DNA of 64,000 nucleotides from a virus. Below are positions 33,301 through 52,522 of the stretch, piece after piece. Location of the stretch: positions 96,001 through 160,000 of the IMG/VR virus record IMGVR_UViG_3300047160_018755; one strand, written 5' to 3'. The position numbers and the translations under genes were made by a program. A model generated the notes under the pieces. That model did not search any database. It was not told where the DNA came from and saw only the letters and a list, made by a program, of their open reading frames with translations. Positions within the stretch are counted from its first letter, which is position 1. Every line of letters begins with the position of its first letter.

Positions 33301-33561
33301 GTCGTGTGCCTGCTCGTACTGCTCGTGCTTGTCGTGCATGAGGTGCGCTTCGCGGCACTCGTGCAGAGCAACGAGCGGGATCTCATCTCGCGGCGTGTTG
33401 TTGTCGATCCAGATCTGGCCCTGCGGAATCCACTTGTAGCGCTCCGGGTTGCCGCCTTGGACGAAGTCCGAGTCGTGCTCGTTGCGGATGACCTCTCCGT
33501 CGACGAGAAAGATCTTCAGCCCGTGAGGACAGGCTCCGATGGGTTGCTTGCGGACATCCAT
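30394..33561 (-). CDS. Multidomain (polyvalent) protein: HE-motif domain, Nudix, ParB-like, helical repeats, PI3K/HipA-like kinase
   Basis: GHFEEGESPEQCATRELYEETGL Nudix box; PPLVV...VVDGNHK; DYILGNPDSHGQN...LIDHG. Confidence 0.8.
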   Translation of the reverse strand: MDVRKQPIGACPHGLKIFLVDGEVIRNEHDSDFVQGGNPERYKWIPQGQIWIDNNTPRDEIPLVALHECREAHLMHDKHEQYEQAHDEAKELENKFRNHANRVAIITCYNGEGQLLVGKRNDNDFYTLPAGHFEEGESPEQCATRELYEETGLHAVSLSHLKNYTLPDGTEAYCFSAYVSGSPHPKNDPDDEVSEWEWIDVEEGLPPKVYNHLHGPKDSTNLLRQIFKVQKSEDWDTLEKKEPKVWHSDDWGTSRISIPSIQHPDRPNYDAGYVSALKDHYGPTIKPITVTTDKLVPKNDVKNKSRYDLYRKMYRKEGKLPPLVVKRNSTGLYEVVDGNHKYHAAKAEGGGKLDAYELPSEHVDQAAMVGTHLPHLAKAEDEVFRMLDNPDPIERGMALKLDTVRPEHLFQAALDPDPSIYQAAINHPLFGPSQSLSLMEAVVGKNGAYPQAQKDFFLGQPGKLQPYHFTALARAARMCGPACYAATVAQIAAHPEAPEGLLRSMYMDPDVVHDSRIAILSHKRAAADVLDHALKTALTVPGGGSGDLGSRAVEHLELPYGSLRALVQRAADRGEPHVVALAERALESNQGLSTPALAEIFKDLLPKAQLLPTSAAPGLIGALLRNKSVSPTLADEATHALHPDTLLRAGVMSNPAFGPQHLQKMLSKALDLLTPAASAPMEGVAKHPIVTMQLGFEPANHRAFKAAKFLANGALISDESMRQALYFEDGDVDRAALQAYGLPCSEENLKALHAICGLTKSDPIMEPTPTASKVVTAHLEGEDVARMIERAFKTHFVFPVALGGKHSKGSFIAYDEQTKTTLLLKSGSGGAGGAAGSKEDPSNPNAREAAFYHIAKQWEIGKWYPRAELVIIDDKMYSALHLLALDFKTLDEMERKEPGTARSVLHKYLHEGLVHKWAVIDYILGNPDSHGQNVMVDPKGDVQLIDHGSAFAGPSFDPGHDGNSFVPYYLRAWCLDENFHQLDTATKLKSLPRVPASVAEELKTWFGKIVPGDVRLICQRYGINTIPTMDRLQKVSVRLGNEPLDLIINSLWVTT

Positions 33562-35804: not shown

Positions 35805-35984
35805 TCAGTCTGTGGCGCGACCGTTGCGGTACTCGCTCTCCCACTTCTCCTCGGCATCCTCGTCACGCTCGGGCATCTCGGTCCCCAGGAGCTTGTCCAG
35901 CTCCTTCTCGAACTTCTTGCGGGGCTCGCCGCGCTCCATCGCAGCCGCGATCTCTGCGAGGCGCTTCTTGATGTCGGTGCTCAT
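35805..35984 (-). CDS. Small charged protein
   Basis: ATGA overlap with thyX stop. Confidence 0.55.
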   Translation of the reverse strand: MSTDIKKRLAEIAAAMERGEPRKKFEKELDKLLGTEMPERDEDAEEKWESEYRNGRATD

Positions 35985-36850
35985 CGTCCCACCCTCGTGA
36001 ACGTGGGGTCGACCGTCTCGCGGAACTGGATCCAGCCGCGGAGATTGCCCGACCACGAATTCTCCGTCGACAAACCACTCCGCTCACACACCTTGCACTC
36101 GGCGTGGCCGCACGGAGCGCCGAGAGCCTGCGCGACGTGCTCGAAAGGGCTCCAATGGCCCGAGGCCATCAGACGGTCTGCAAGCGTCACATCCTCCCGC
36201 ATGTCGCGCTTGCCATCGTGAGTGAGGTATGAGACACGCGCGCAACGACCTGCGGAAACCTTGCAGAAATACGGGTCACCGGGAAGAACTTCTTCATCCT
36301 CCTGGATGAGCGGCAGATGCCACTGGCCCGGTTGCAGAAAGCGCGGAGTGTTTGCGTTGTACTGACGCTGCATCTCTTTTGCAACCCAGCCGATCTCGGG
36401 CTGCGCGTCGGGATGGCACCTGAGCTTGAACCAGTTGGTCCACTCCGTCGCCGTGCAGATGACCGTGATGAACATCCACGGCTCCAAGACCCTGTTCGCG
36501 ATCTGCTTGTGGAAGCCGAGGACACCGAGGAGCCACGCCACAAGAAGCGCGCCCCAGCGAGCGGAAAGCCAGAGGCGCTTGACCAGAGCCAGGCGCCAGC
36601 CAGTCAGCTCCTCGCGAGCCTGCATGCCGCTCTGGTTCTTGCCCCACCACACGGGCATCGCCGGGTCGCGACGGATCTGCTGCATGAGCTTCTTCGTCGG
36701 GATGGCGCGGCTGGAGGCCGAGTTGCGCGAGAAGAGGCGGTGGGTCATCAGCTCCGCGTGGACGAACCGCGGGTACGTCAGCTCCCAGGTGGTGAGCCGG
36801 ACGCCGTTGGTGCTGACAGAGTCAGCGAGGATGCGAACGCGATAGGCCAC
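35981..36850 (-). CDS. thyX: FAD-dependent thymidylate synthase
   Basis: ELMTHRLFSRNSASSRAIP, CARVSY, HWSPFEH. Confidence 0.9.
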   Translation of the reverse strand: MAYRVRILADSVSTNGVRLTTWELTYPRFVHAELMTHRLFSRNSASSRAIPTKKLMQQIRRDPAMPVWWGKNQSGMQAREELTGWRLALVKRLWLSARWGALLVAWLLGVLGFHKQIANRVLEPWMFITVICTATEWTNWFKLRCHPDAQPEIGWVAKEMQRQYNANTPRFLQPGQWHLPLIQEDEEVLPGDPYFCKVSAGRCARVSYLTHDGKRDMREDVTLADRLMASGHWSPFEHVAQALGAPCGHAECKVCERSGLSTENSWSGNLRGWIQFRETVDPTFTRVGR

Positions 36851-38081: not shown

Positions 38082-39479
38082 TTACTGGAGGTTGTCGACG
38101 AGGACGTTCTTGCGGGGCTGCATCACGGCCAGCGTGCAGAAGCGGAAGTGCGCCTCGGGCTGGCTGAGGTCCGTGACGGCGAGCTTGAGGCGGCTGTAGG
38201 GAGCCAGCTCCTTCATCGCCATCGTGTCGCCCTCGATCAGGAAGCCCGTGACGAATCCCGGGATCTTGTTGCCGAGGTCCGTGAAGGTCACGGCCGCGCC
38301 CGCGTTCGCCGCGATGCGACCGATGAACTTCTCCGTGCCCGCCGCGCCGCCCGCGAGAGTGCGGTAGACGTTGAAGTAGCGGGTCGTGGAGACCGGCGTG
38401 AGGGAGATGGTGACCTTGTCACCCGCGTTGGTGATCGTCACCGACTGAGTCGCGCAGGCCACGCCCTCGCCCAGCTCGCTGCACGCCGTCGCCTTGTAGA
38501 TGTAGACGTCGTTCGCGAGGAAGTTCGAGACCGCGTTCGCGTCGGTCGCGCCCGTCGGAGCACCCATCGTCGGGGCCGAGGGAGCGGTCGAGCGCGCCGG
38601 AGCGGGCTTGGCCTTGCCACGGAGGAACATGCTGCCCTCGATCTCGACCGTGCCGCCCGAGACCCACTGCTTGCGGAGGTCGCCGCCCGTCGCGCCCTGC
38701 GGGCTGCCCGCGAGGATGATCTTCTCCTTGCCGAAGACGATCTTGTTGTACGCGCTCAGGACCTTCGGGTCGACGACGAGCTTGTCGGCGTCACCGAAGT
38801 TGAGGGCCGAGCGAACGCTCGCGTCCTCGACGATGTCCTGCGTGAGGGGACCGCCGCCCGCGATCACGACCGTGTCGTCCGAGCCGAACTCGGCGAACAT
38901 GAGGTCGCGCGCCTGGCGCTGGTTGTCCGACTGACGGACCTGGAGATCCAGGCCGTGCATGTTCGGGAGCGGAGCCACCGAGAGCGGGTTGCCGTCGAAG
39001 ACGCCCGCGTTCGAGAAGTCCGCGAGGCCGCGGAACAGGTCGAACTCGATGTCGCCCGCGATCTTCTTCGCCGCGTTGGCCGCCTCGCGCTCCTCCGCCT
39101 TCACGCCGTCGACCGTGGTCACCATGTTGGCGACGATGGTCACGCGACGCGTGTGCGAGTAGAACGCCATCGGGACGGTCACACGGACGTAGTCCGCGTT
39201 CTCTTCCTGGCCGATCGCGCCTTCGAGCTGGGCCGAGCCGCCGAAGATGCCGTAGCTCAGCTGACGATCGAACTGGGCGAGCGTCGACTTGCACGACTCG
39301 ACCTTGACCATCTTCTGGAGCTTGATGTGGGACTCGTCGAAGGTCACGACCTGCATGACGTTGGACAGGTCCTCCGTCTGGAGGGCCGCGCCTTGAACGA
39401 GCGTGCTCGGAGCGGCGTTGTAGTTGCCGGCCTCCAAGGCCTTGGTGAGGGACTGGAGTTCAGCGATCAGATCGGACAT
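38082..39479 (-). CDS. Major capsid protein (SPO1/Twort-like)
   Basis: GAALQTEDL...TF...LQKMV...STLAQFDR pattern matches K/A511-type MCP; downstream of scaffold. Confidence 0.92.
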   Translation of the reverse strand: MSDLIAELQSLTKALEAGNYNAAPSTLVQGAALQTEDLSNVMQVVTFDESHIKLQKMVKVESCKSTLAQFDRQLSYGIFGGSAQLEGAIGQEENADYVRVTVPMAFYSHTRRVTIVANMVTTVDGVKAEEREAANAAKKIAGDIEFDLFRGLADFSNAGVFDGNPLSVAPLPNMHGLDLQVRQSDNQRQARDLMFAEFGSDDTVVIAGGGPLTQDIVEDASVRSALNFGDADKLVVDPKVLSAYNKIVFGKEKIILAGSPQGATGGDLRKQWVSGGTVEIEGSMFLRGKAKPAPARSTAPSAPTMGAPTGATDANAVSNFLANDVYIYKATACSELGEGVACATQSVTITNAGDKVTISLTPVSTTRYFNVYRTLAGGAAGTEKFIGRIAANAGAAVTFTDLGNKIPGFVTGFLIEGDTMAMKELAPYSRLKLAVTDLSQPEAHFRFCTLAVMQPRKNVLVDNLQ

Positions 39480-39521: not shown

Positions 39522-40496
39522 TTACTTGAGCAGGTGGGCGATCTGGTCGACCTTCACCTTGCCGAGGTCGAAATCGACGACGAGCGTCTTCTCCGACTTG
39601 GACAGGGTTCCGGCAACGACCTTCTCACGGAGCTTCGCGCGAACCTGCTCGCGCGACATCTGGGTCACATCGGCGGCGGGGGCCGCGGCGGGGATGTCGG
39701 CGGCGAACTTCACCGACTTGCGGAGGGGAGCCTCCAGGACGTGCTTGACGGCCTTGACGAGCGGGAGGACCGCCTCCTGCACCTTCGCGTTGATCTCGGC
39801 CGTGATCTCGGCCTCGCTCTTGTGGAGCGACTCGCCACCCTTGACCTTCGAGAGGTCGCCGTTGGCCTTGGGATCGTTGCTCATGCCCGACTCCGCCTTC
39901 AGCGCGGGCGCCGGAGCGCTCGCATCCGCGGGGGGAGCCGACGCCGCCGGGGGCGGCGCGCCAGCAGAGGCATCCGGGCCCGCCGGAGGCGGGGCGCCAG
40001 CGCCAGCGTCCGCACCAGCACCCGCGAGGGTCTGCATGAGGACCTGCTTGAGGCACATGTAGTGCAGCTTCTGGTCTTCCGGCGAGAGCTTCGAGTACTC
40101 CGCCATCAGAGCCTGCGGGTCGATCGGACCCTGGTCGGCCGCGGGGTCACCGCTGCCGTCCGGAGACGCCGAAGCGTCCGGAGACGCCGAGCCAGCGTCC
40201 GCCGGGGGCGGAGCCGAACCGTCGTCACCCGCGGGCGACGCCGAAGCGTCGGCCGGAGGGCCGTCCGAACCCGTGGCGTCGGGCGAAGCCGAGGCCGCAT
40301 CCGGAGACGCCGAGGCCGCGGAGGTGTTGTCCCCCGTGGGATCGGTGTCCGACGCGTCCGACTTGTCGTCCGCCGGGGTGTCCTCGCCGGGGCGAGCCTT
40401 GGCGAGTTCCGACTTCGCGAGATTGCCCAGCTCCTTCTCGACCTCCGCGAGGATGGCCGAGAGCTGGCTCTCGTCGATCTGTGCAGTGTTGGACAT
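39522..40496 (-). CDS. Capsid scaffold protein
   Basis: Acidic ASPDA-repeat low-complexity protein just upstream of MCP; six LxK[S/A] motifs. Confidence 0.7.
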   Translation of the reverse strand: MSNTAQIDESQLSAILAEVEKELGNLAKSELAKARPGEDTPADDKSDASDTDPTGDNTSAASASPDAASASPDATGSDGPPADASASPAGDDGSAPPPADAGSASPDASASPDGSGDPAADQGPIDPQALMAEYSKLSPEDQKLHYMCLKQVLMQTLAGAGADAGAGAPPPAGPDASAGAPPPAASAPPADASAPAPALKAESGMSNDPKANGDLSKVKGGESLHKSEAEITAEINAKVQEAVLPLVKAVKHVLEAPLRKSVKFAADIPAAAPAADVTQMSREQVRAKLREKVVAGTLSKSEKTLVVDFDLGKVKVDQIAHLLK

Positions 40497-40532
40497 GATG
40501 TGTTCCTTCCCGTGCTTGGGTGTCGAGGCGAC

Positions 40533-41012
40533 TTACTGCGACGACAGGAGCGGGAAGTAGAGGTCGGGCTCGAAGGACGCGATCAGCTTGGTGCCGGTGT
40601 TGAACGTGGTGATGGTGGGGACGGTGCCGTTCGTCTCCTCCCAGTACTCGACGCGCGTGCCGCGCTTCGAGCAGGTCGAGGAGAGGGCGAGCCAGTGAGC
40701 CTTGCTCACGTAGGCCGCGATGCAGGACGCGTTGCCGCCCGTGCCGGCCTCGACCGCGATCTGGATCACGCTCGGGGTGTAGACGGGCTGCGTGTTGTTC
40801 ACGATGTCCTTCTGGAGGTTCCAGTCGCGGGGACGGACGCAGATGAAGACGTTGTCCTCGGTCGTGGCGGCGCTGCCGTCGTTGAGCGAGATCGTCGCGA
40901 AGCCGTTCGCGTCGAAGCCGTCGACGATCGAGGCGTAGCTCGAAACGCGCTGGCGAAGCTCGTCCGAGAGTTCGAGAGCGAGCTTCTGAGACTTGGTGCT
41001 GGTCGATGCCAT
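40533..41012 (-). CDS. Probable virion protein
   Basis: Strong RBS; between protease and scaffold genes. Confidence 0.6.
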   Translation of the reverse strand: MASTSTKSQKLALELSDELRQRVSSYASIVDGFDANGFATISLNDGSAATTEDNVFICVRPRDWNLQKDIVNNTQPVYTPSVIQIAVEAGTGGNASCIAAYVSKAHWLALSSTCSKRGTRVEYWEETNGTVPTITTFNTGTKLIASFEPDLYFPLLSSQ

Positions 41013-41127
41013 TGAAATTTTCTCCTGTGGGATCTTGGTGCGGGACCGATCCCGCCGTCTTCCATGAGATTGCCGCGCACCCGTAACAAAAATCGTGAAA
41101 GAGCCCTAATCTTCCAGGGGTTAGCCC

Positions 41128-41514
41128 ATGCCTAACCTGTACGTCTGCTCGGGTTGCAAAAACCCTAAGCCTCGCGGGGAGTTCCACGAGGCTCATTACA
41201 CGGACCGCAAGCGCGTCGTGACCTCCCGTTGCCGCGAGTGCCGATCCGAGGACTACTTCACCGACCGTTACGAAACGGTGTGCGGGCAGTGCCGGCGCCA
41301 TCGACCGCTGAACCAGAACCGCGTGTGCAAGAAGTGCAACGAGGACTCCGGCCTGCGCGAGTGCCGCGGGGCGTGCGGATCGCTCCTACCGGCGCTGCTG
41401 TCGTTCGACGGCAAGCGCACGACGTGCAAGTCGTGCCGGAAGCTTAGGCAGCTGCCTTCGGCGTCTTCGGCGGCTTCGGCAGCGCAGTCGCGACGGTCGG
41501 CGATGCCGGCGTAA
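41128..41514 (+). CDS. Multi-zinc-finger protein convergent on the protease gene
   Basis: Six Cys pairs (CxxC/CxxxC); AATCTT upstream. Confidence 0.6.
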   Translation: MPNLYVCSGCKNPKPRGEFHEAHYTDRKRVVTSRCRECRSEDYFTDRYETVCGQCRRHRPLNQNRVCKKCNEDSGLRECRGACGSLLPALLSFDGKRTTCKSCRKLRQLPSASSAASAAQSRRSAMPA

Positions 41515-44500
41515 CGGTCTGGTGGACCGCGTGCTGGCCAGCATCGTGGATCGGCAGCGGACCTTCATGACCCGGCATCAGTGAGTGGGCGAGGTTCGGC
41601 ACCTGGCCGACCTTGTACTGGCGCTTGTCGCCCATGATGCCGAGCTTCTTGCCCATCTGGCGCATCGCTGAGGGCTGCGCGACCTTCTGCTCCTTCGCCT
41701 TGTAGAGCGCGAGGTCGGCGGACGCGGGGTCCGGGCCGAAGCCGAAGGACATGCTCATCTTGTGCTGGCCGCCGAGAGGGGCGAGCGAGTTGAGCTTGTC
41801 GCTCAGCGCACGGTGGAACTGCGCCGCGTGCTCGTGGCTCGGGACGTGCGCGATGAATTCGTCGCCGCCGTTGCGCCAGAGCTTGCCGTTCTCCTTGCCC
41901 ACGGTCTCGTCCATCGCCTCACGAGCGGCGTTGCCGAAGGCCTTGATGGCGGAGTCGCCGCCCGCGTGGCCGAACTTCTCGTTGATCGCGCGGAAGTCGT
42001 TGCCGTCCATCTGAATGTACGCGCCGGTCTTGCCGCCCGGGTTCTGCTTCAGGTGGTCGGTGAACGCGAGCTTGTTGCCGAGCCCCGGAACCATGGGGTC
42101 CGAGAAGAAGTGCTTCGTGGCGATGTCGCCCGAGCCCTTCGGCATGGCGCCACGAGCTTCCGCATCGCGGATGTGGCGCACCAGCTCGTGCGGCTCCATC
42201 TCCGCCGGATCCGCCTTCATGAGCGACTCGAACGCGGCCTCCGCCTTCATGACGGAGTCGAACTGGCTCTTCTGCTTCGCCTTGTACGAGATCTTGGCGG
42301 CACCGGACTTGTGGTTTTCGAGGATCTTCTGCACCTCGGGCTGCGACAGCTTCTCGCCATCGAGCAGGTAGTGCCCGTCCTTCACTTCGAGGGTGTGCGG
42401 CTTGTCGTGGCCGGCACGCTTGTACTCGAAGACCGACGGCGGACGCGGGAGACGTGCGTTGTTCTGCATCTTCTCCGGGTGCGCGTGCTCGCGGAACTTG
42501 TCGTTCTGACCGTCCATCGTCTCGACCTCGACACGGACGTGTGGAGACATCTTGAGTCCGTGCAGCTTCGTCAGGCCCTGGATGGTGAGCGGTCCCTCAG
42601 GCAGAGTCGCCCCGATGAGGCCGTGGTAGTCTTCGAGGTGGTGAACCTGGCCCTGGTGCAGGACGAAGCGGCCCGCGAGGTGCTCGGTGTTGCCGTGGTC
42701 CTTGTCCTTGAAGAACACGGAGTGCACAGTCGGCACGTTCGGGTCCGAAATCTTGGCGACCTGCATGTCGTGGACGTTCTTGCGCAGCTGGATGCCGAGG
42801 TTCTCGATCTGCATCGACTTCGCGAAGTCCGACAGGTCGTCGTGCTTCTCGCGGTACTCGGCCATCTCGTAGAGGTGTGGGACGATGTGCTGGTAGTACA
42901 TCATCATCGCCGGGATCTCGCCGAACTCCTGCTGGTACGCGAGGAAGAGCGCGACGAGCTTGCCCATCATGTGCTCGTCCGGCTCCTTGTCGGAGAACGC
43001 GTTCTTCTTGAGCTGGGGCGCCTCGCTGCCGAACACGCGCTCCATCTGCTTCCACATGGCCGAGTGCGTGCTCAGCTCGTTCTGCGAGGCGGTCGTGTCG
43101 ATGCCGCGGGCCTTCTCGTCACGGGGGATGGTCGCCCAGTGCAACCAGAAGCCCGGACCAACAGCGTCCTCGTTGTCCTTGAAGTGCTTGCCCGCCACCG
43201 GGTCCTGCGCGATCGAGCGCGGCGCCGGGTGGTTCTTGGCGTACCAGCGATCCATCGCCTCCAGGATGTGGTGGTTGCCGGCGCGCCACAGGCCTGTCTT
43301 CAGGTACTGGAGCGTGCGACCGTCGGTCGCGTTGTCCATCCCGAACATGTGGCGGATGTAGTGCGTGTCGTGCACGGCGGCGTTCGAGCCACCGGTCAAC
43401 AGAAAGGCGTATCGTCCCGTCTTCGGGGCCAGCCCGGGGACAGGAGTGCCCTCGTACTTCGGGAACTTCTCGTGCAGAGCACGGTTCACGAAGGGAGAGA
43501 GCTTGTCTTGGAGGCCGGCGTCCGTCGCCTCCTGCTTGAACTTCGCGCGGTACCAGCGCTTGCCCGTCAGGCGCGAGGCGGAGTACTTCGCGATGCTGGG
43601 GTGCTCTTTGTACTCGTCCGGGTTGAAGTCGGTGTCGTCGTTGCCCGTGAGCATGCGCGGATCGAAGGGAAGCGGCGCATCGTCATCGTCGTCAGCGCCC
43701 GGCTCACGCTCGGCCGGAGCCTGACCCTTCTTCGTGAACTTGCCAGCAGCGTTCGCCTCGTTCATCTTCTGGTCGACGTAGTTCTTGTGGTCGTCGGTCA
43801 GACCCGCGGCAGCCGCCTGCGCCTTCAGCTTCTTGCGGAAGGCGTTGCGCTGGTTCTTCCACTGGATCTCCTTCACCTTGTGCTGCATCAGCTCCGCAGT
43901 GGCGGCGCGTGCATCGGTGCCGTGCTTCTGGATCAGCTCCATCATCGTCGGGTGGAGCTTGTGGTACTGGGCGATGTTGTCGAACTTGTTGTTCGCCAGC
44001 ATGAAGGACTTCACGTCACCGACCTTGCGGCGACCGCCTTTCTCGCTGTCGCTGCTCAGGAAGTTGCCCTTGTCGTTGGCATACTCCTCGGTGTCGTTCT
44101 TCGGGAGGTTGTTCGCCTTGTCGCGAGCCTTCCAGTCCTTGCGGAGCTTGCGAAACTCAGGGTCCGCCGGGTCGAGGCCATGCTCCTGCCAGCTGTCGTA
44201 GAGGTGGCCCTCCATCAGCTGCTGGACGGAGACCGGCGTGTTCGGCGACATGGCCGACATGAGGTACGCGATCTTGACGATGTCCGGCGGAAGCGTCTTC
44301 GCTTCGAGATTTTGCTTGTTGCGGACGAATCCAGGCAGAACCTTGCTGCGGATGAACTCCTTGATCTCGGGAGTCTCCAACATCTTCGCGAATTCGGGGT
44401 TCGGACCGTTGTGCGGGATCTGATTCATGTCCGCACCTGGCGCCACGTGCAAAACGCCGTTGTGGTAGAAGGGCGAGAGCTTCGCGAGCGGGTGAGTCTT

Positions 44501-45757
44501 CTGCTCGAAGCCCGTGTCGGGGTTGTACATCGGGAAAGAGCCCTTGCGCGTGTGCAAGATGCCCTTTTGCTCGTCGAACACCCACTTGTTGGTCTTCACC
44601 TTCGGCGCAGCGACCGGAACGCCTCGAATCGAGGCCACGGCGAGCTTCACCGGGTTGTCATCGGGCTCCTCGGGCTTCGCAACCTTCGGCGCAGCGACCT
44701 TGCCGGTCTTTTTCGGAGTTTTTGCCGGTTTCGGAGCCGCGGAAACGGGCTTGGGCGCTGCCTTTTTCGGCGTCGCGGCCGGTTTCTTGCCGATCTTGGC
44801 TGCCGGTGTGGCCGAAGGCTCCTTTTTCGCGAGGTGCTGCTTCTTGACGTGGTAGTCCTCGACCACATCCGTGAAGTGATCGATGAAATCGTCGCTCGCC
44901 TCGGGCATCAGCGTCTTCGCGAAGCCGCGGAACTCGCTGCGGTTGAAGACCTCCATGTAGCCGCCCTCGGAGAGCTTCTGGATCAGGTCTCCGGTCGTCC
45001 ACTTCTTCGCCTTGCCGGGCTTCTTCGGGCCGAGATCTTCCTTCTGGAGAGCCGCGCCGCCTTCGAGAGCACTCGGGGCGGCCGAAGCGGTGCCCGCGGC
45101 GAGCGCCTTGCTCAGGTCGTCGACCATCGGGTCTCCGACCGTGCCCCACGAGCTGCCGAGGCGCTGGAACATCGGATCGGTCTCACTCTTCTCGGCGTCG
45201 GAGAAGTCGAGGAGGTCACGCACCTTCGTCTTGACGTGCTTCTTCTCGAATCCCTCGGGCGCGTTCGGATCTTCGATGAGTCCCGACACCGCCGTGCGGT
45301 TGCAGGGCTTCACGGTGACGGCCACGCGACGCACGACGGACTCCGCGAGGCGGTTGTCCTCCTTCTTGAGCGTCGCACCTTCGACCGAGTAGCGGCAGAC
45401 GATGGGCTCGTTGTTCGCGGCGTGATCGCGGATGATGGCGGCGATGCGCTTCGCCTCTTCGTGGCCGGCGCCGTCATACAGACGGCAGACGCCGTAGATG
45501 TACGGAAGTTTGATCTCGTCCCAGTAGCGCCGCTGGCGGTCGTTTTCGCAGTCGTCGCGCTTGTAGATCTTCTTCGCCTTGAGGACGATGCCGACCAGGG
45601 TGGTCGCGCTCTTGTCACCGGGGGTGTGCTCCCAGTTCAGAAGACAGGTGCCCTTCTCGACATCGGAAATGTCAGCGCCCGCGACGTCGAGGACTTCGCC
45701 CGAGGAATCGATGGCCTCGGAACCGAGGACACCGTCAATCATCATGCCGGTTGACAC
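41444..45757 (-). CDS. Prohead protease polyprotein with C-terminal GGDEF diguanylate cyclase domain
   Basis: N-terminal EAIDSSGE...LNWEH...YSVEG...VAVTVKPCN protease; central HhH-like motif; C-terminal DGNDFRAINEKFGHAGGD...RNGGDEF. Confidence 0.85.
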   Translation of the reverse strand: MSTGMMIDGVLGSEAIDSSGEVLDVAGADISDVEKGTCLLNWEHTPGDKSATTLVGIVLKAKKIYKRDDCENDRQRRYWDEIKLPYIYGVCRLYDGAGHEEAKRIAAIIRDHAANNEPIVCRYSVEGATLKKEDNRLAESVVRRVAVTVKPCNRTAVSGLIEDPNAPEGFEKKHVKTKVRDLLDFSDAEKSETDPMFQRLGSSWGTVGDPMVDDLSKALAAGTASAAPSALEGGAALQKEDLGPKKPGKAKKWTTGDLIQKLSEGGYMEVFNRSEFRGFAKTLMPEASDDFIDHFTDVVEDYHVKKQHLAKKEPSATPAAKIGKKPAATPKKAAPKPVSAAPKPAKTPKKTGKVAAPKVAKPEEPDDNPVKLAVASIRGVPVAAPKVKTNKWVFDEQKGILHTRKGSFPMYNPDTGFEQKTHPLAKLSPFYHNGVLHVAPGADMNQIPHNGPNPEFAKMLETPEIKEFIRSKVLPGFVRNKQNLEAKTLPPDIVKIAYLMSAMSPNTPVSVQQLMEGHLYDSWQEHGLDPADPEFRKLRKDWKARDKANNLPKNDTEEYANDKGNFLSSDSEKGGRRKVGDVKSFMLANNKFDNIAQYHKLHPTMMELIQKHGTDARAATAELMQHKVKEIQWKNQRNAFRKKLKAQAAAAGLTDDHKNYVDQKMNEANAAGKFTKKGQAPAEREPGADDDDDAPLPFDPRMLTGNDDTDFNPDEYKEHPSIAKYSASRLTGKRWYRAKFKQEATDAGLQDKLSPFVNRALHEKFPKYEGTPVPGLAPKTGRYAFLLTGGSNAAVHDTHYIRHMFGMDNATDGRTLQYLKTGLWRAGNHHILEAMDRWYAKNHPAPRSIAQDPVAGKHFKDNEDAVGPGFWLHWATIPRDEKARGIDTTASQNELSTHSAMWKQMERVFGSEAPQLKKNAFSDKEPDEHMMGKLVALFLAYQQEFGEIPAMMMYYQHIVPHLYEMAEYREKHDDLSDFAKSMQIENLGIQLRKNVHDMQVAKISDPNVPTVHSVFFKDKDHGNTEHLAGRFVLHQGQVHHLEDYHGLIGATLPEGPLTIQGLTKLHGLKMSPHVRVEVETMDGQNDKFREHAHPEKMQNNARLPRPPSVFEYKRAGHDKPHTLEVKDGHYLLDGEKLSQPEVQKILENHKSGAAKISYKAKQKSQFDSVMKAEAAFESLMKADPAEMEPHELVRHIRDAEARGAMPKGSGDIATKHFFSDPMVPGLGNKLAFTDHLKQNPGGKTGAYIQMDGNDFRAINEKFGHAGGDSAIKAFGNAAREAMDETVGKENGKLWRNGGDEFIAHVPSHEHAAQFHRALSDKLNSLAPLGGQHKMSMSFGFGPDPASADLALYKAKEQKVAQPSAMRQMGKKLGIMGDKRQYKVGQVPNLAHSLMPGHEGPLPIHDAGQHAVHQTVTPASPTVATALPKPPKTPKAAA

Positions 45758-45937: not shown

Positions 45938-46690
45938 TCAGCCGCGCTGAGCCCGGTACTCGTCGTGGTCGAGGGAGACGAACTTGATCATCCCAGCCCC
46001 GTCGAACCCGTACCCGCGGGCCATGCCGGTGAGGCTGCACCGACAGTGGGGGTGCAGGCCGCTGACGCTGGGAGTGTCGGTGCCGCGGTCATGGTATCCG
46101 GTTGACACCTCGGACATCTTGAACACCCGGGGCGTCTTCCCGTCCGGGAGGAGATGGACCCTCTTGCACTCTTTGCAGAGGTCATTGTCCCGTACGGGAA
46201 TGAAGAACACGTACGGGTCCTCGTTGCCGATGACGTCACCTGCACGAGCAACACCTTCGAGGGTCGCCATGTTCCGCGCGGTCGTGCCCTCGGTGTCCAC
46301 GATCGAAACGACCGCAGCTGTGGTCTGATCCCACACCGGCTCCAGCTCGCTCATGAGGACGTCTTCGAGCGGCGCCTCCGGGTCCTTGTTCAGGGCCGTA
46401 TGCACAGCGTGGACGACGCGAGCCTTCGTCCTCTCCGCTTCCGCGTCGAGGTAGCCCTCCGCAATGACCGTCAGGTTGTGGAGCATCTTCTCGTTCGGCT
46501 CCATCGCCTCTTCAGCGGCGGCCGAGCGGTAGAGACCGGGCAGTGAGTAGCGCTTGATGTGCTTCTTGACGTCCGCCTCGTCCTTGAAGTAGCCCGGACC
46601 GAGGACGCGACCTTTGATGCGAGTGAAGACCCTGTCGACCGTGGTGTGGATCAGCCGCAGTGCTCGCTTCGTGAGAGTGAGCAGAGGCAT
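45938..46690 (-). CDS. MuF/SPP1 gp7-like head morphogenesis protein
   Basis: DTEG..ARN...DNDLCKEC...GLHPHCRC; follows portal. Confidence 0.8.
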   Translation of the reverse strand: MPLLTLTKRALRLIHTTVDRVFTRIKGRVLGPGYFKDEADVKKHIKRYSLPGLYRSAAAEEAMEPNEKMLHNLTVIAEGYLDAEAERTKARVVHAVHTALNKDPEAPLEDVLMSELEPVWDQTTAAVVSIVDTEGTTARNMATLEGVARAGDVIGNEDPYVFFIPVRDNDLCKECKRVHLLPDGKTPRVFKMSEVSTGYHDRGTDTPSVSGLHPHCRCSLTGMARGYGFDGAGMIKFVSLDHDEYRAQRG

Positions 46691-48837
46691 TAGCTCTTCC
46701 TAATGCGGGCGGCCTCTTCCAGGATTTCCTTGCTGGCGTCCTTGAGGTCTTCCTTGAGGCCGTCACGCAGGCGGTCGATCATCACGCGGTGCTGGGCGAC
46801 GAGCTTGCGGCGCGAAGGCGGCAGGTCCGCCTCAGCCTTCGAGAGAACGTGGAGGGCCTGGTCGATCGAACGGCTCAGGTCCTGGCCGGGCGGGTTCTGC
46901 TCCTGCTGGAGCTTCGTCGCGCCACCGGCCTCGGGCGCGGACTGGCCACCGGCCGCGTCCTGCGCCGCGGCTTGCGGGTCACCGCCCTGCCCCGGAGGGC
47001 CGCTGTCACCGCCATCGTCGCCACCGCCCTTGTCGGCACCGTCACCGCCACCTTCGTCGGCCGCGGCTCCGCCCGGCTGCTGCGCCTGCTGAGCCTGCGC
47101 GTCCGCCTGCTGCTGCGCCTGCGCGACCTGGATGTTCTGGAAGTAGAACGGATCGCGGATGTAGTGGAGCTGCGGGTCACGCGGGAGACCGAAGAAGTGC
47201 TCTCGGATCTCGTCGACGTAGAGGAACTTGTCCTGGATGGCCTGGAGCTGCGGGTTGAGCGGGAAGTCGCCGCCCCATGCCTTGCCGATGATGGGCTTCT
47301 CCACCTTCTGCATGACCTGGTCGTAGGTCATGTGGACCGGCATGTCCTGCTGGAGACGCGTCGACTCCTTCTCTTCGGTGTCAGCGTCGAGGCCCTTGAA
47401 GCGGAACGAGCAGAGCTTGGCGAGGCTCGGGTCGATGAGCGGGAAGATGACCGCGTTGATGAAGTCCTCGAACTGCGTCATGATCGGGCGGATGCCCTGG
47501 TCACGCGCCGCCTCCAGGCGGTACTCGTTGTTCGACTCGGAGAGAGACTGGTTGTTCGTGCCGCGCGAGAGGTACGCCCAGCCCGGCAGCTCGTCCGGCG
47601 ACATCTGGAACGCGGAGAGGATGACACGCGCGTTCATGTCGGTGAGGTACTGGAATTCGGCGTCGCGCGACGAGTTGTCGATCGACTGCCACTCGATGTC
47701 GTCCTTCGTGCCGACCGAGAACACGGGCATGCGCCACGCGTTGTTCACGCTGTTGATGCTCGCGTTGAACTGCTGCTTCACCTGGTGCAGCGTCGTCTGG
47801 TCGACGTCGTCCGACTTGAAGACGAGCATGCCGTGCGAGGCGCGACCCGTCTGGAAGTAGAGCTTGTTGTGCGTGGTGATGTTGATGTGCGTCGTCACCG
47901 CGCTGATCATCGTGTCGATCGGCGTGACGGGGTACCCATCCAGCTCGACGTCGACGACCGGGTAGAAGTTGTGGACGCGCATCTCGTCGTCCGTGAAGGC
48001 CTGCACGGGGCGACCGTCGATCACTTGGATCCAGGCGTACTCGCCCTTCTCGAACTTCGACTCGTCGATGTTGCTCTTGACCCTCTCCGAGTCGTTGCCG
48101 TGCTGGAGGTCCTTGAGCATCTTGACGGCCTGCTCGCGGAGAGCCTGCGCGTGCGTGCGCTGCGGGGCAGCCTTGAAGATCGTGCCGACGTCGGTCGGAC
48201 GGAAGTGGTGGAACTTCTTCTCCGCGCCCAGCTGGTCCTGGTACACGATTTCGACCGCGATGCGTCCCAGGCCGACCGCGTTGCGCGTGGCCATCTGGAT
48301 GAACTGCGCGAAGGAGAGGTGGTCCTTCTTGTCGACGCCATCGGTGCTGCCGCACGTCCAGAACTTCTGGACCGCCTCCTGCTTGCGAGTGTCCAGCTCC
48401 TTCAGCTCGGCCGGAGTGAGGCGTTCTTTGACGCCGACGTTCGGCTCGATCACGTAGCCGGTGGCGAAGCGGTCCGGACGGGGGCGACCAAACGACCCCA
48501 TCTGCGTCTCGCGAGCGCGGATGATGGCGGCGACGAGGTCGTCCTGGATGATGATGCGCTTGAGGAGCGAGTCGGGGAGGAGCTTGACCTTCGCGCGGTA
48601 GACCGACTGGTACTGGTTGACCAGGTTGGGGTCAGTCTCGAACGCGAGGCGCTCGACCGATTCCTTCGGCCCGTTCAGGAGGTCGAGGATCGACTTCGCG
48701 AGCGTGTCGGGAGCTTCCTTCTTCTCGCCGGGCTCCTCGATCGCAAAACGAATGGTCGCCGGACGCTTGGGCAGCGCCGCCATCGATTCGTCAAACGACT
48801 TGACGAGCGAAGCTCCTGCGATGGGCAAGTTCGCCAT
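46690..48837 (-). CDS. Portal protein
   Basis: NKLYFQTGRASHG, IEW...DAEFQY, FQMSPDEL, GIRPIM, HMTYDQV; between terminase and MuF. Confidence 0.88.
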   Translation of the reverse strand: MANLPIAGASLVKSFDESMAALPKRPATIRFAIEEPGEKKEAPDTLAKSILDLLNGPKESVERLAFETDPNLVNQYQSVYRAKVKLLPDSLLKRIIIQDDLVAAIIRARETQMGSFGRPRPDRFATGYVIEPNVGVKERLTPAELKELDTRKQEAVQKFWTCGSTDGVDKKDHLSFAQFIQMATRNAVGLGRIAVEIVYQDQLGAEKKFHHFRPTDVGTIFKAAPQRTHAQALREQAVKMLKDLQHGNDSERVKSNIDESKFEKGEYAWIQVIDGRPVQAFTDDEMRVHNFYPVVDVELDGYPVTPIDTMISAVTTHINITTHNKLYFQTGRASHGMLVFKSDDVDQTTLHQVKQQFNASINSVNNAWRMPVFSVGTKDDIEWQSIDNSSRDAEFQYLTDMNARVILSAFQMSPDELPGWAYLSRGTNNQSLSESNNEYRLEAARDQGIRPIMTQFEDFINAVIFPLIDPSLAKLCSFRFKGLDADTEEKESTRLQQDMPVHMTYDQVMQKVEKPIIGKAWGGDFPLNPQLQAIQDKFLYVDEIREHFFGLPRDPQLHYIRDPFYFQNIQVAQAQQQADAQAQQAQQPGGAAADEGGGDGADKGGGDDGGDSGPPGQGGDPQAAAQDAAGGQSAPEAGGATKLQQEQNPPGQDLSRSIDQALHVLSKAEADLPPSRRKLVAQHRVMIDRLRDGLKEDLKDASKEILEEAARIRKS

Positions 48838-48840
48838 CGG

Positions 48841-49833
48841 TTACTCCGCAGACGCAACCTTGACGGTCGCGCGCGCAGTCGAACGGTTGAGGATCGTCAG
48901 GCTCCAGACGCTGCCCCACTTGGTCGACGAGCCTTCCATGCCCGGAGTGCCGGCGAGGAGCGGTTCGACGCGGTTGTAGGTCCCCGTGTCGCCGTTGAAC
49001 TGCAACACGATCGACTGATCCGTGCGGATGCCGATGAAGCGCTTGCGCGCGGTGTAGATCGCGATGCCAGCGGTGGTCGGGAGGATGTCCGACTGAGGAC
49101 CGAGCGGAGACGTCGAGAAAAACTCGATCCACCGCGGCGTCACCATCGTGATGTCGTACGAGTTGAGCGCGGAGGCGGCGAAGCCAGCCGAGAGGTCGAC
49201 CGTGTCGCCGATCTGAACGCCCGTGGCCGAGAAGGCCTGGAAGTCGGTCGACGCGACAGGCGTCACAACCTCGCTGATGCCTTCCCAGACCGCGTCGGGG
49301 TCACGACCGAGGACGATGACGCTGGAGCTGACGACCGTGAGGACGGTCCAGAGGCCCGCGTTCAGGTCGTTGAACGGACCCGCGGGATCGCCCGTCTTGA
49401 CGCCGGGGATGAAGACCTGATCGCCAGCAACCACGCTGGCGAAGGGAGTGCCCGAGCCCGCCGTCACCTGGAGGGCCAAGTTCGGCAGCACCGCGAGAGT
49501 GAGGACGATGCTGGAGCAGTCCGCGCCGCGGTCGGTCCTGAATCCGGGAGGGTTGCCGGCGAAGTGCGTGAGCCGGTAGGTGTTCAGCGTCGTCGGGTTG
49601 ATCGAGAGGTTGAACGCGGTGTTGTTGTTGATGGTCGTGTTGCGCGTTCCGTTGAAAACCGTGACGCTCGCACCGGGGTCGACCTGGATCGAGCGCGTTT
49701 CCGGGTTGTCGACCGGAATGTTCGCCTGCGTGATCGAATAGTCGATCGGACTCGACGTCGGATTACTGGTCGGGGGAACGTCGTCGTACCCGAGGACTTT
49801 GAGGAGGAGAGTGAATGCCGACATGGTCTTCAA
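48841..49833 (-). CDS. Beta-rich virion protein of unknown function
   Basis: Thr/Val/Gly-rich; late motif upstream. Confidence 0.6.
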   Translation of the reverse strand: MKTMSAFTLLLKVLGYDDVPPTSNPTSSPIDYSITQANIPVDNPETRSIQVDPGASVTVFNGTRNTTINNNTAFNLSINPTTLNTYRLTHFAGNPPGFRTDRGADCSSIVLTLAVLPNLALQVTAGSGTPFASVVAGDQVFIPGVKTGDPAGPFNDLNAGLWTVLTVVSSSVIVLGRDPDAVWEGISEVVTPVASTDFQAFSATGVQIGDTVDLSAGFAASALNSYDITMVTPRWIEFFSTSPLGPQSDILPTTAGIAIYTARKRFIGIRTDQSIVLQFNGDTGTYNRVEPLLAGTPGMEGSSTKWGSVWSLTILNRSTARATVKVASAE

Positions 49834-49848
49834 CCCTCAAGATTGCGG

Positions 49849-51780
49849 CTAGATAACCCAGCCAAAACGGCCCCGGCGGCCCGAAGAACCGGCACTACCC
49901 TCGGAAAGGCCTCCGCGCTCCTCGATGACCTTCGACATCCAGTTCTCGACGGTGTAGACGTGCGGCGGATGGGTCGGGGCCGGGGCTGGGGAATCGCCAG
50001 CGACCGCCGGGCGACCCTTTTCGGCCCCGAAAACGTTCATGATCGCGTAACGAAGGGCATCGCACTCGTCGTCCTCGACCTCGGTGGGCCTGTCCGTCAC
50101 CCTTTCGGCCGCGTCCGTGATCCAGTGGTACTTCATGAGGCGCTTGACGAGCAGCTCGACGCCTGGGTCTCCCGCCAAGAAGTAGAGCAGGGGCTCGGTC
50201 ATGGGCGGCTGGAGCTTCAGCTGGACGGCGCTGATGCCGCCGACCACCGTGCCGGCGACCTTCTGCCACTCTCGCATGCGGAACCCGGCGCGGCGGAGCA
50301 CCGCGATCATTTGCTTGTTCTCCATGTCGGGGAAGATGACCGGGTTCCAGTCCCTGATGCGCTTGTTGCAGACGTCGACCATCTGGTCAGGAAGCAGCTC
50401 GGGCTCGGCGATGACGTCGACCACAAACGCACGGTAGCCGTCGCAGAAGATGGTGACCACGGCGAAGTTGTGCGCGTAGCCGAAGTCCATGCCCGCGTAG
50501 CAGAGCATGTCGCGCTGGCGCATGATGTCGATCAGGCCCTTCTTGTCCATCCGCGGGTCGACCGGGAAGCCCAAGATCATCTCCGCCATCTGCGCCGCGG
50601 TGATGACGTGCTTGTCGCGCGAGAAGTTCGGATAGACCAAGCCCTCGGTCGACGGCTGCTTGCAGAGCAGCTGCGCGAGGACGTAGTCGATCGGCGCGTT
50701 CATCATGTTCGCGACGTGGTTGATGGGCTTGAGCAGCTCCGACTTCGACTTCTGGTGCGTCGCGAGACGGCCGTGGCACGCAGCGAAGATCTTGCAGTTC
50801 TTCAGGCAGCCGACGAAGCCTTCCTCCTTGGTGAACTTCGCCTGCTCGGGCTCGGTGAGACCCTTCCACTTCGCCTCGCCGATGGCCTGGAGGCGCTTGG
50901 GGTCAACGTAGATCGGGATCTTGCCCTGCTCGGGCAGGTGGCGCTCCGGCGGGCAGGCGCGAGTGACGTCGAGGATGTTCCAGTGGCGGACGTGGAGCCT
51001 GATCTCACCCGTCTCCTGGTCGACGGCCTCATCAATCTCGCGCTGCACGAGGCCGGTGGAGATTTTGCGCGTCGACGTGAGCACCGTGGTGGGCATCCAG
51101 CCGTTGATAGGCGCCGGGATGAACTTCGCCTCCTGGTACGCGCGCTCGTTCGTAACGACGTCGACCTCGTCCACGACGAAGAACGGCACGTGCTCAGAGT
51201 TGGCGCCAGCCGGGGTGCAGATGACGATCTTGATGTAGTTGCGAACCTCCTCCCACTGCGCGTCACGCAGCTCTGGCGACAGAGCCCTGAACCTCGACTC
51301 GGAGAAGCTCTCTCCCGTCTCCGGGTGGATGTAGCGGGCAAATTCGACGCGGCGGACGTTGTCGCCGGAGACGAAGTCACGGAGGATGGGCTTGCTGAAA
51401 AACTTCTTGACGTACTCTTGGCTCTTCTCCGATTGCGGCTCGATGGCGGCCATGTGCGCGACGTTGCGGCGCAGGTGGACGACGGCCAGAACCTCCAGCA
51501 TTGCGGCGCAGAGGGTCTTGAAGGAGTCGCGAGACGCGTAGTACATGACGCGCGCGAAGGTGGGGTCGTTGTTGTACAGCGCCTTCGAGTAGCACTCCCA
51601 GAGCATGTCCATGGGCGTACTCGTCGAGTCGGGGTCGACGATGCAGTCGGGCACGTCGAACTCGAAGAAGAGCCGGATCCACTTGTGGAGGGCGTCGCGT
51701 GTCGTGCACGGCACGAAGGCGATCTTGCGCTTGAGGGCAAGGATCTCTTCCGGCGACTTGGGCTTCTTAGCTTCAGCCAC
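49849..51780 (-). CDS. Terminase large subunit
   Basis: ASRDSFKT Walker A-like, FVVDEVD Walker B, GMDFG and DDECDALRY nuclease motifs. Confidence 0.88.
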   Translation of the reverse strand: MAEAKKPKSPEEILALKRKIAFVPCTTRDALHKWIRLFFEFDVPDCIVDPDSTSTPMDMLWECYSKALYNNDPTFARVMYYASRDSFKTLCAAMLEVLAVVHLRRNVAHMAAIEPQSEKSQEYVKKFFSKPILRDFVSGDNVRRVEFARYIHPETGESFSESRFRALSPELRDAQWEEVRNYIKIVICTPAGANSEHVPFFVVDEVDVVTNERAYQEAKFIPAPINGWMPTTVLTSTRKISTGLVQREIDEAVDQETGEIRLHVRHWNILDVTRACPPERHLPEQGKIPIYVDPKRLQAIGEAKWKGLTEPEQAKFTKEEGFVGCLKNCKIFAACHGRLATHQKSKSELLKPINHVANMMNAPIDYVLAQLLCKQPSTEGLVYPNFSRDKHVITAAQMAEMILGFPVDPRMDKKGLIDIMRQRDMLCYAGMDFGYAHNFAVVTIFCDGYRAFVVDVIAEPELLPDQMVDVCNKRIRDWNPVIFPDMENKQMIAVLRRAGFRMREWQKVAGTVVGGISAVQLKLQPPMTEPLLYFLAGDPGVELLVKRLMKYHWITDAAERVTDRPTEVEDDECDALRYAIMNVFGAEKGRPAVAGDSPAPAPTHPPHVYTVENWMSKVIEERGGLSEGSAGSSGRRGRFGWVI

Positions 51781-52522
51781 GGACCAGCTCCTCCGCCTTG
51801 GTGCGGTCCATGCCACCCTTCACGAGGAATTCGATCTTCTCCTCGGGCGTCTCGGGAGGCGCTGCGATCTGTTTCGGCGGCTCCGTGACCTCGGCGTCGA
51901 TGATGTCCTCGGCCAGGAGGTCATCCATGATGTTCGTCGCCTCTTCCGCGGACACCTTCTGAGCGACGTGCTGGATCTGACCGGTGTGCTTGACCTCGAC
52001 CTTCTTCGCGTCCGTTCCGGACGCCTTCATGTACAGCTCGGTCAGGTCGCGCAGCTCCTTCATGTTCTTCGGGAGCGGGACGCCGTTGAGGTGTGACTCG
52101 TCGCCCGTCGCGATGTAGCGCTTGAGGGCATCGTTGTGCTTCATCTGCGAAGCACGGAGAAGGTTGGCGAGGAAGTCCTGCGTCTCCAGCTGGACCGTCT
52201 CGACCTTGGTGGGGACCTCGCTCTTGAGCGTCGCGACGGCGTCACCCTTGCGCTCGTCCCACTGCCACATCACGCGGGCGGCAACGATCTGGCCCAGGCT
52301 GAAATGCGGGAAGAGGCGCCGCAGCTCTTCGCAGCCGTTGCCGGCCTTGTAGAGCTTGAACAGCTCCTCCTGGTTCTGCTCCGGGATGCCGCGGACCTCG
52401 TTGTTGACGAAGTACTTGTACGCGGCTCGTTCGCGGTCGGAAAGCGCCTTGATGGCCGTCGCGAGACGGACCTCCTTGTCGCTACTTGTCTGAAGCTCCT
52501 TGCTTGGCTGCGGCGTCGGCAT
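51773..52522 (-). CDS. Probable terminase small subunit
   Basis: N-terminal HTH-like region, KKVEVKHTG-type tail; directly upstream of terL. Confidence 0.6.
   Translation of the reverse strand: MPTPQPSKELQTSSDKEVRLATAIKALSDRERAAYKYFVNNEVRGIPEQNQEELFKLYKAGNGCEELRRLFPHFSLGQIVAARVMWQWDERKGDAVATLKSEVPTKVETVQLETQDFLANLLRASQMKHNDALKRYIATGDESHLNGVPLPKNMKELRDLTELYMKASGTDAKKVEVKHTGQIQHVAQKVSAEEATNIMDDLLAEDIIDAEVTEPPKQIAAPPETPEEKIEFLVKGGMDRTKAEELVRG

Follow-up and report, generated by a model that had tools for sequence, protein, structure and literature searches.

Introduction

In bacteriophage T4, the prohead protease gp21 is located inside the core of the prohead, where it trims enzymes that are targeted to the capsid (the internal proteins and Alt) and later injected. 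In the herpesvirus UL26/assemblin and in gpO of phage P2, the protease bears a long extension at its C-terminus, which is released when the protein cleaves itself. MuF-toxin fusions of temperate phages, reportedly the subject of work by Jamet et al. in 2017, carry a C-terminal effector such as RelA/SpoT on a head protein. Here, a stretch of 64,000 nucleotides of viral DNA (bases 96001-160000 of the IMG/VR record IMGVR_UViG_3300047160_018755; hereafter the window) was analyzed, and it was found to encode, within its head gene module, a polyprotein of 1437 amino acids (aa) designated as P0001. In this single chain, a predicted capsid-maturation (prohead) protease is followed by a domain of the HhH-GPD DNA-glycosylase fold and by a GGDEF diguanylate cyclase domain. 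The source record is a complete virus of 182,279 bp with direct terminal repeats, and the G+C content of the window is 63%.

MuF fusions are also described in the study of polyvalent proteins by Iyer, Burroughs, Anand, de Souza, and Aravind in 2017 (PMC5512222). Polyvalent proteins are multi-enzyme proteins encoded beside portal-terminase genes, and their packaging and injection have been predicted. The modules listed for them include GGDEF, kinase, and PBECR domains, GGDEF being "not very widespread", and their assemblin-like peptidase is placed "always at the C termini" (PMC5512222).

P0001 resembles the polyvalent proteins in having a protease, an HhH-GPD fold, and a GGDEF domain in one chain, in its head-gene context, and in the variation of its modules among relatives; the difference is that its protease is N-terminal and constitutes the conserved anchor. 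P0001 shares with UL26 and gpO an N-terminal protease of the assemblin fold and a long extension after it, but the extensions of UL26 and gpO are scaffolds without enzymes, whereas that of P0001 contains enzyme domains and a scaffold-like gene is present separately. The cargo of T4 is separate and bears a short N-terminal targeting peptide, while the cargo here is, or was, joined to the protease. MuF-toxin fusions are similar in that a head-morphogenesis protein carries a messenger-making or toxic C-terminal domain. The carrier is, however, the protease in P0001, and a separate MuF-like gene lies directly upstream.

The sole matching isolate in the phage collection is Myxococcus phage Mx1 (OR576727.2), with 34% overall identity. 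Its head module is orthologous and shows the same gene order, but three abutting genes (WNM70322.1, WNM70323.1, and WNM70324.1) correspond to the one chain of the window. Their GenBank labels are "putative prohead protease", hypothetical protein, and "nucleotide cyclase", respectively. The 150-aa protein of Mx1 matches aa 1027-1157 of P0001, and its 243-aa cyclase, in which GGDEF is kept, matches approximately aa 1175-1402. The cyclase is not discussed in the Mx1 genome announcement (PMC10720576), and homologues are labeled "GGDEF domain-containing protein" by JGI. No discussion of a head-module or protease-linked phage cyclase was found in the literature searched. The gene labels of Mx1 and the homologues, as well as polyvalent and packaged phage effectors, were already known, and the protease-linked cyclase of the head module is an addition to that kind. 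The reading preferred here, close to evenly balanced and slightly to the doubtful side, is that the cyclase is packaged, processed, and ejected, and that it raises cyclic dimeric guanosine monophosphate (c-di-GMP) in the host.

Recurrence of the Protease-Cyclase Fusion

P0001 is encoded by one uninterrupted frame, which gives 1437 aa from a GTG and 1433 aa from the first ATG (Table 1). An earlier note on this DNA, made from the sequence alone, had described a protease gene with a C-terminal GGDEF domain, and the frame agrees with that description. A database search revealed 101 relatives of 790-2515 aa, many of them on contigs of 150-200 kb, and PF00990 is present in approximately 65 of the 101. 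Screening of IMG/VR with the single protein returned only one relative, and a scan seeded with the alignment returned 66 loci. With at least 100 members among database proteins and 66 viral contigs, the family is large.

The cyclase was located within the 66 IMG/VR loci by a hidden Markov model of the family. It shares one open reading frame (ORF) with the protease in 10 loci on independent contigs, it is the very next ORF after the protease in approximately 13 loci, and it lies one gene further along in approximately 10 loci and in Mx1. A search for protease-GGDEF fusions in metagenomic phages had been proposed in the earlier note as a check, and such fusions were found in these 10 IMG/VR contigs and among the approximately 65 database proteins. 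An assembly artefact as the source of the fusion, which the note had held out as a way for its proposal to fail, is ruled out because the same architecture is present in many independent contigs. It is practically certain that both the gene and the fusion of a cyclase to a capsid-maturation protease are real.

Each adjacent split cyclase starts from an ATG of its own next to the stop codon of the gene before it (usually TAA), and therefore these are genuine separate genes. Readthrough or frameshift versions of the fusion are ruled out for these adjacent forms. The cyclase gene is separate in approximately 23 of the 33 informative IMG/VR loci, as it is in Mx1, and it holds its place in the head module between the protease and capsid genes down to approximately 30% identity. 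Short protease genes (300-750 aa) belong to lineages mostly lacking a cyclase. In a rapid tree inferred from the protease domain, in which deep support is weak, the proteases without a cyclase are placed basally and the fused forms fall mostly in one subclade, with 4 state changes versus 8.5 in shuffles.

GGDEF Diguanylate Cyclase Domain

PF00990 matches aa 1225-1357 with an E-value of 2.5e-9 and a score of 37.5 bits, above the cut-off of 23.8. The domain is short; its 133 residues span 150 positions of the profile. TIGR00254 scores 31.8 bits, under its cut-off of 37.4, and the NCBIfam matches are all to diguanylate cyclases or their degenerate relatives. The cyclase region recovered 15 solved cyclases with phmmer, and a profile of the C-terminal module of the family recovered 43 solved diguanylate cyclases with a best E-value of 2.4e-12.

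The signature RNGGDEF occupies aa 1295-1301. The GGDEF motif itself (aa 1297-1301) lies at window positions 41855..41869, exactly where the earlier note had placed it, and the stretch quoted there for comparison with PleD corresponds to aa 1251-1268. D1251, N1259, and D1268 align with their counterparts in the solved cyclase 5m3c, and they presumably correspond to D327, N335, and D344 of PleD. The residues were counted among 91 non-identical cyclase domains of the family. Asp1220 and Arg1295 are present in all 91, the metal-binding Asp1251 in 90, the guanine-contacting Asn1259 in 89, and Lys1355 in 88. The residues G, G, D, and E of the signature are found in 87, 91, 91, and 84 domains, respectively. 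At the base-contacting position of Asp1268, Asp is observed in 77 domains and Asn in 14. The retention of the metal-binding Asp and of the guanine-binding Asn and Asp, which had been noted for this single sequence, is thus observed across the family.

The RxxD allosteric I-site, which is located five residues before GGDEF, occurs in many cyclases but is missing from others. In P0001, the corresponding residues are KENG (aa 1288-1291), and the place of the Asp is taken by Gly in 75 of the 91 domains, so that the absence of this inhibitory site, also pointed out earlier, extends to the whole family. Product inhibition of the PleD/WspR type would therefore not be expected. Like PleD, WspR, YfiN/DgcN, and 5m3c, P0001 has the signature of the GGDEF fold and every A-site residue, and it differs from them in lacking the RxxD I-site and any recognizable sensory or dimerizing N-terminal domain. 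The conservation of catalytic residues across the 91 domains indicates selection for catalysis. As judged from these residue counts, purifying selection on the cyclase is clear, and the cyclase is probably competent as an enzyme.

The product could be a different nucleotide, or the domain could act as a decoy, with CBASS (cyclic-oligonucleotide-based anti-phage signaling system) or type III CRISPR immunity as the target instead of c-di-GMP signaling. The substitution by Asn at the position of Asp1268 in 14 domains is consistent with a different product, and interference of polyvalent GGDEF domains with host nucleotide signals was proposed by Iyer et al. (PMC5512222). An island of Myxococcus xanthus encoding CBASS and a type III-B system blocks phage Mx4 and does not restrict Mx1 (PMC11506125); the escape of Mx1 is taken as context and not as evidence. 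However, the guanine-specifying Asn and Asp are canonical in P0001 and in the 77 relatives with Asp, the sequence and profile matches are all to ordinary diguanylate cyclases, and PADLOC returned no match to any part of the polyprotein. A different product or a decoy function is accordingly considered very unlikely.

N-Terminal Protease Domain

The AlphaFold2 (AF2) model of aa 1-165, built with 51 homologues, shows a predicted local distance difference test score (pLDDT) above 90. In an exhaustive structure comparison, the best match was T4 gp21 (5jbl_A; Z 10.7, root-mean-square deviation 2.4 Å over 123 aa), and the proteases of varicella-zoster virus (Z 9.7) and human cytomegalovirus (Z 7.2) were also matched. 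The rows listed by Foldseek are herpesvirus proteases and T4 gp21, with probabilities up to 1.0 and every E-value above 0.001. His44 and Ser124, the putative catalytic pair, are invariant in the 51 sequences, and also in 42 full-length proteins.

No match to aa 1-310 was found in Pfam, PHROGs, or NCBIfam, nor with a profile against PDB sequences. On the basis of these searches, the N-terminal protease family is absent from current sequence models. The gene lies between the portal and MuF-like genes and the capsid gene, and it therefore occupies the usual slot of the maturation protease in tailed phages. The label "prohead protease" given in the earlier note is thus backed by the predicted fold, the invariant His and Ser, and the gene position, without a match in the sequence libraries, and the identity is accepted as a prediction from fold and gene context. 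Short stand-alone relatives match only approximately aa 1-306, which indicates that this part was the ancestral protease module.

HhH-GPD Core and Module Shuffling

The central part of the chain (aa 451-898) was modeled by AF2 with a mean pLDDT of 82. The best match of its core, found with the exhaustive aligner, is the Thermotoga OGG (3n0u_A; Z 14.9, with 207 out of 209 residues in the alignment), and of the 23 rows that follow, 20 are proteins of the HhH-GPD fold. Further matches include OGG1, Mag1, EndoIII, MagIII, NTHL1, MutY, AlkA, AGOG, ROS1, and a queuine-salvage enzyme. Lys779 of the helix-hairpin-helix and the downstream Asp797 are invariant. Searches of Pfam and other sequence libraries gave no match to aa 451-898, and the Foldseek result was blank. 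By the model and the structure comparison, the middle domain has the HhH-GPD fold and is glycosylase-like; a glycosylase activity is at most predicted. The picture of the chain in the earlier note was correct for the protease and the cyclase, and it missed this core and the multi-enzyme, polyvalent nature of the protein.

A second conserved domain (aa 1010-1165) separates the core from the cyclase. In relatives with two genes, it is the N-terminal part of cyclase genes of approximately 410 aa. The atlas feature search gave no usable match to aa 1010-1200.

The relatives insert or substitute a PBECR5 nuclease, a PI3/PI4- or HipA-like kinase, or DUF5661 on the same chain. The sister polyproteins P0085, P0092, P0097, and P0023 carry PBECR5, DUF5661, a HipA-like kinase, or GGDEF together with a PI3/PI4-like kinase. 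By sequence comparison, module shuffling takes place on one protease scaffold among the sister polyproteins. Since the relatives swap kinase or nuclease modules, P0001 is regarded as a polyvalent head protein with a new layout: the protease is the N-terminal anchor, the HhH-GPD core is within the conserved chain, and GGDEF is the commonest C-terminal module.

A second polyvalent protein of 1055 aa is encoded in the window at 30394-33561 on the minus strand. It shows a NUDIX match (E-value 1e-20), a weak ParB_N match, and a PI3/PI4-kinase-like C-terminus. In relatives such as P0023 and P0062, a PI3/PI4-like kinase of the same type stands on the protease chain in place of GGDEF or beside it.

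The distribution of modules bears on a possible role of the cyclase in head assembly. The GGDEF domain could be a switch that binds GTP or c-di-GMP and times protease activation or scaffold release, or it could be a structural part of the core, and its product would not be meant for the host. The tight and ancient linkage to the protease and capsid genes and the lack of phage-encoded c-di-GMP receptors agree with such a role, and both equally fit a target in the host. In contrast, the same protease family includes clades without a cyclase, and some members have kinase modules in its place; the cyclase is therefore not needed to build such heads. The full conservation of catalytic residues, and not only of binding residues, also indicates turnover. 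An assembly role has little chance of being the explanation.

Capsid-like Motif, Linkers, and C-Terminal Peptide

A motif of approximately 29 aa at the N-terminus of the major capsid protein (MCP; aa 11-39, 39363..39449 on the minus strand) is repeated nearly residue for residue at aa 213-243 of P0001. The pairing of this motif in the polyprotein and the capsid gene is kept in at least 16 related loci in which both genes were captured. The simplest reading is that the two copies are likely a shared recognition or cleavage site of the protease, with cleavage after Lys217 or Glu240. Alternatively, the copy in the polyprotein could be a mimic for docking to the shell. Among the candidate cleavage sites, this motif is the only one with independent support, which comes from the sequence pairing. 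The split cyclase proteins have no copy of the motif.

Another putative site is LMKA at aa 1179-1182, which the earlier note had proposed as the point of release of the cyclase fragment. Of 28 aligned sequences with a cyclase, 25 have a motif of the form L-x-K-small at this position. In the stand-alone cyclases of Mx1 and the loci L043 and L048, the corresponding position lies approximately 15 residues from the N-terminus. LMKA is thus at a natural module boundary, as the cyclase gene of the three-gene relatives begins approximately 15 residues upstream. In terms of the alignment, the boundary at LMKA is real and the fragment of approximately 255-270 aa is a natural unit. The motif counts do not single out L-x-K-small as the cleavage motif of the protease. 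Across the family, it is over-represented 1.84-fold relative to shuffled sequences, no more than L-x-E-small (1.86-fold), and P0001 alone contains 8 copies versus 4.9 expected, a count reached by 11% of shuffles and not significant.

The C-terminus contains a conserved peptide of 21 residues (aa 1384-1404), which is found in both the fused and the split forms. It is unique within the window, and 52 proteins of the family have it. This peptide may be a docking or processing element, or a degron-like end. Ala is the last residue in approximately 30 of 38 cyclase-bearing family proteins, and Ala-Ala is found in 12.

These elements relate to whether the cyclase is a virion component. It could instead be a late cytoplasmic enzyme, with the head operon setting its timing and dose and the fusion being one of several neutral arrangements. 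Late c-di-GMP could alter surface polysaccharide or pili and, for example, limit superinfection or the loss of progeny on debris. Such an enzyme is in agreement with the separate cyclase genes, having their own ATG beside the preceding TAA, in most informative loci and in Mx1, with the lack of the capsid-like motif in the split cyclases, and with the confinement of the fused state mostly to one subclade of the quick tree. A late enzyme is the main rival of the preferred reading, but it is considered rather unlikely: the cyclase holds its place inside the head module across very divergent phages, the non-catalytic C-terminal peptide goes with the cyclase in every arrangement, and the modules on the sister chains are of the effector type that is usual in injected polyvalent proteins.

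Head-Module Gene Order

The genes on the minus strand are arranged in the order of large terminase, 330-aa gene, portal, MuF-like gene, the 1437-aa gene, 159-aa ORF, scaffold-like gene, and capsid (Table 1). The 250-aa protein between the portal and the polyprotein is probably a MuF-type minor head protein. It shows weak matches to SPP1 gp7 and to the C-terminal region of proteins in which portal and MuF are fused, and its match to TIGR01641 (E-value 0.0048) is under the cut-off of that model. The 324-aa acidic protein is probably the scaffold, as suggested by its position and composition; it has no family match in Pfam, PHROGs, or NCBIfam.

Table 1. Coordinates of the P0001 gene, its parts, and the surrounding head genes in the window.
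Feature	Position	Strand	Basis
Large terminase	49849-51816	-	Library assignment
330-aa gene without assigned function	48841-49833	-	
Portal protein	46690..48837	-	PF04860 E 6.9e-12; phrog_12
Probable MuF / SPP1 gp7-like minor head protein, 250 aa	45938..46690	-	phrog_2662 E 1.5e-5
Whole polyprotein gene P0001, 1437 aa, stop codon included	41444..45757	-	Homologues start at the same N-terminal residues
Predicted capsid-maturation (prohead) serine protease domain, aa 1-165, gp21/assemblin fold, His44 and Ser124	45263..45757	-	AF2 fold
Disordered segment, aa 213-243, putative protease recognition/cleavage site	45029..45121	-	Copy of MCP N-terminal motif; pLDDT <50
Small three-helix domain, aa 255-309	44831..44995	-	AF2; end of ancestral ~300-aa protease module
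Lys/Pro/Ala-rich variable linker, aa 310-394	44576..44830	-	Low occupancy and conservation
HhH-GPD DNA-glycosylase-fold core with large insertions, aa 451-898	43064..44407	-	AF2 and structure comparison
Conserved domain, aa 1010-1165	42263..42730	-	Separate 150-aa gene in Mx1
LMKA, aa 1179-1182, L-x-K-small motif ahead of variable acidic linker	42212..42223	-	Positional conservation
GGDEF diguanylate cyclase domain, aa 1220-1358	41684..42100	-	PF00990; catalytic residues present, I-site absent
Conserved 21-residue peptide, aa 1384-1404, then Pro/Ala-rich tail	41546..41608	-	Fused and split forms
159-aa ORF	40533-41012	-	
324-aa acidic low-complexity protein directly upstream of capsid gene (probable scaffold)	39522..40496	-	Position and composition
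Major capsid protein (MCP), 465 aa	38082..39479	-	phrog_752 E 2.7e-51

A strong terminator-like hairpin (12-bp stem with a T-run) is located at 41166-41195 on the minus strand, approximately 250 nt past the stop codon of the polyprotein and within the head operon. A ThyX-type thymidylate synthase (35981-36850, minus strand; PF02511, E-value 8.5e-17) is encoded directly downstream of the capsid gene, and a thymidylate synthase likewise follows the capsid gene in Mx1. Two long ORFs were rejected as genes. The opposite strand contains a 1330-aa ORF (41762..45754, plus strand), which is taken as a shadow frame of DNA with 63% G+C, and the 358-aa Arg-rich ORF at 40225..41301 on the minus strand, which overlaps real genes, is taken as a high-G+C shadow frame. 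No match to PilZ, EAL, or HD-GYP was found in the phage genome, and any target of c-di-GMP would thus be that of the host.

Proposed Mechanism

In many bacteria, pili, exopolysaccharide, and motility are under the control of c-di-GMP. In the preferred reading of a packaged and ejected cyclase, the chain would be brought into the procapsid by its protease end, in the manner of T4 gp21 and of the protease-scaffold fusions of herpesviruses and P2, and by this analogy the entry of the cyclase into the procapsid is fairly likely. The protease would cut at the capsid-like motif, and probably also at the inter-domain linkers. The folded cargo domains would be retained once the head is filled and would exit together with the DNA. 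Retention and delivery of the cyclase, again by analogy, are possible but somewhat doubtful. In the newly infected cell, the cyclase would condense two GTP to c-di-GMP without feedback control. In relatives with a separate cyclase gene, the conserved C-terminal peptide would dock the cyclase in the head. The sister chains support this reading, since their PBECR and kinase modules are of types known from polyvalent proteins that are predicted to be injected (PMC5512222).

Several points weigh against this reading. The cyclase is separate in most relatives, so that the covalent tie to the protease is dispensable for function, and the argument that the cyclase is packaged because it is fused is weakened. 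It is common for prohead proteases and scaffolds to be degraded and to disappear from the head. For two GTP-loaded domains to meet, GGDEF enzymes must dimerize, and no dimerizing domain was recognized by sequence with Pfam, NCBIfam, or the feature search; a two-copy prediction of aa 1010-1437 (alignment A4) gave a score of 0.00 with no answer returned, and it weighs neither way. Packaging, processing, and ejection are proposed by analogy, and the sole tie of the phage group to Myxococcus is Mx1 at its 34% identity.

A wider and rather doubtful proposal is that the whole Mx1-like clade (approximately 170 kb) loads a feedback-free cyclase and a glycosylase-like enzyme into the capsid, either fused or docked through the peptide. 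Both would be ejected with the genome, and infection would open with a burst of c-di-GMP in the host, which would rewire pili, exopolysaccharide, and motility or would blunt nucleotide-based immunity.

Significance

In Myxococcus xanthus, c-di-GMP regulates development, exopolysaccharide, and the motility driven by type IV pili. Mx1 is cultured and infects M. xanthus, and therefore the question is directly testable. The analysis also defines an unmodeled family of prohead proteases, a capsid motif copied into a protease chain, and a new polyvalent layout. Phages may depend on c-di-GMP for receptor display (PMC8669472). In the literature searched, the effects of phages on c-di-GMP are otherwise indirect, such as those of peptides binding host cyclases (PMC8085984). 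If the proposed mechanism is true, the virus would gain direct access, through the cyclase of the head module, to the main lifestyle signal of bacteria.

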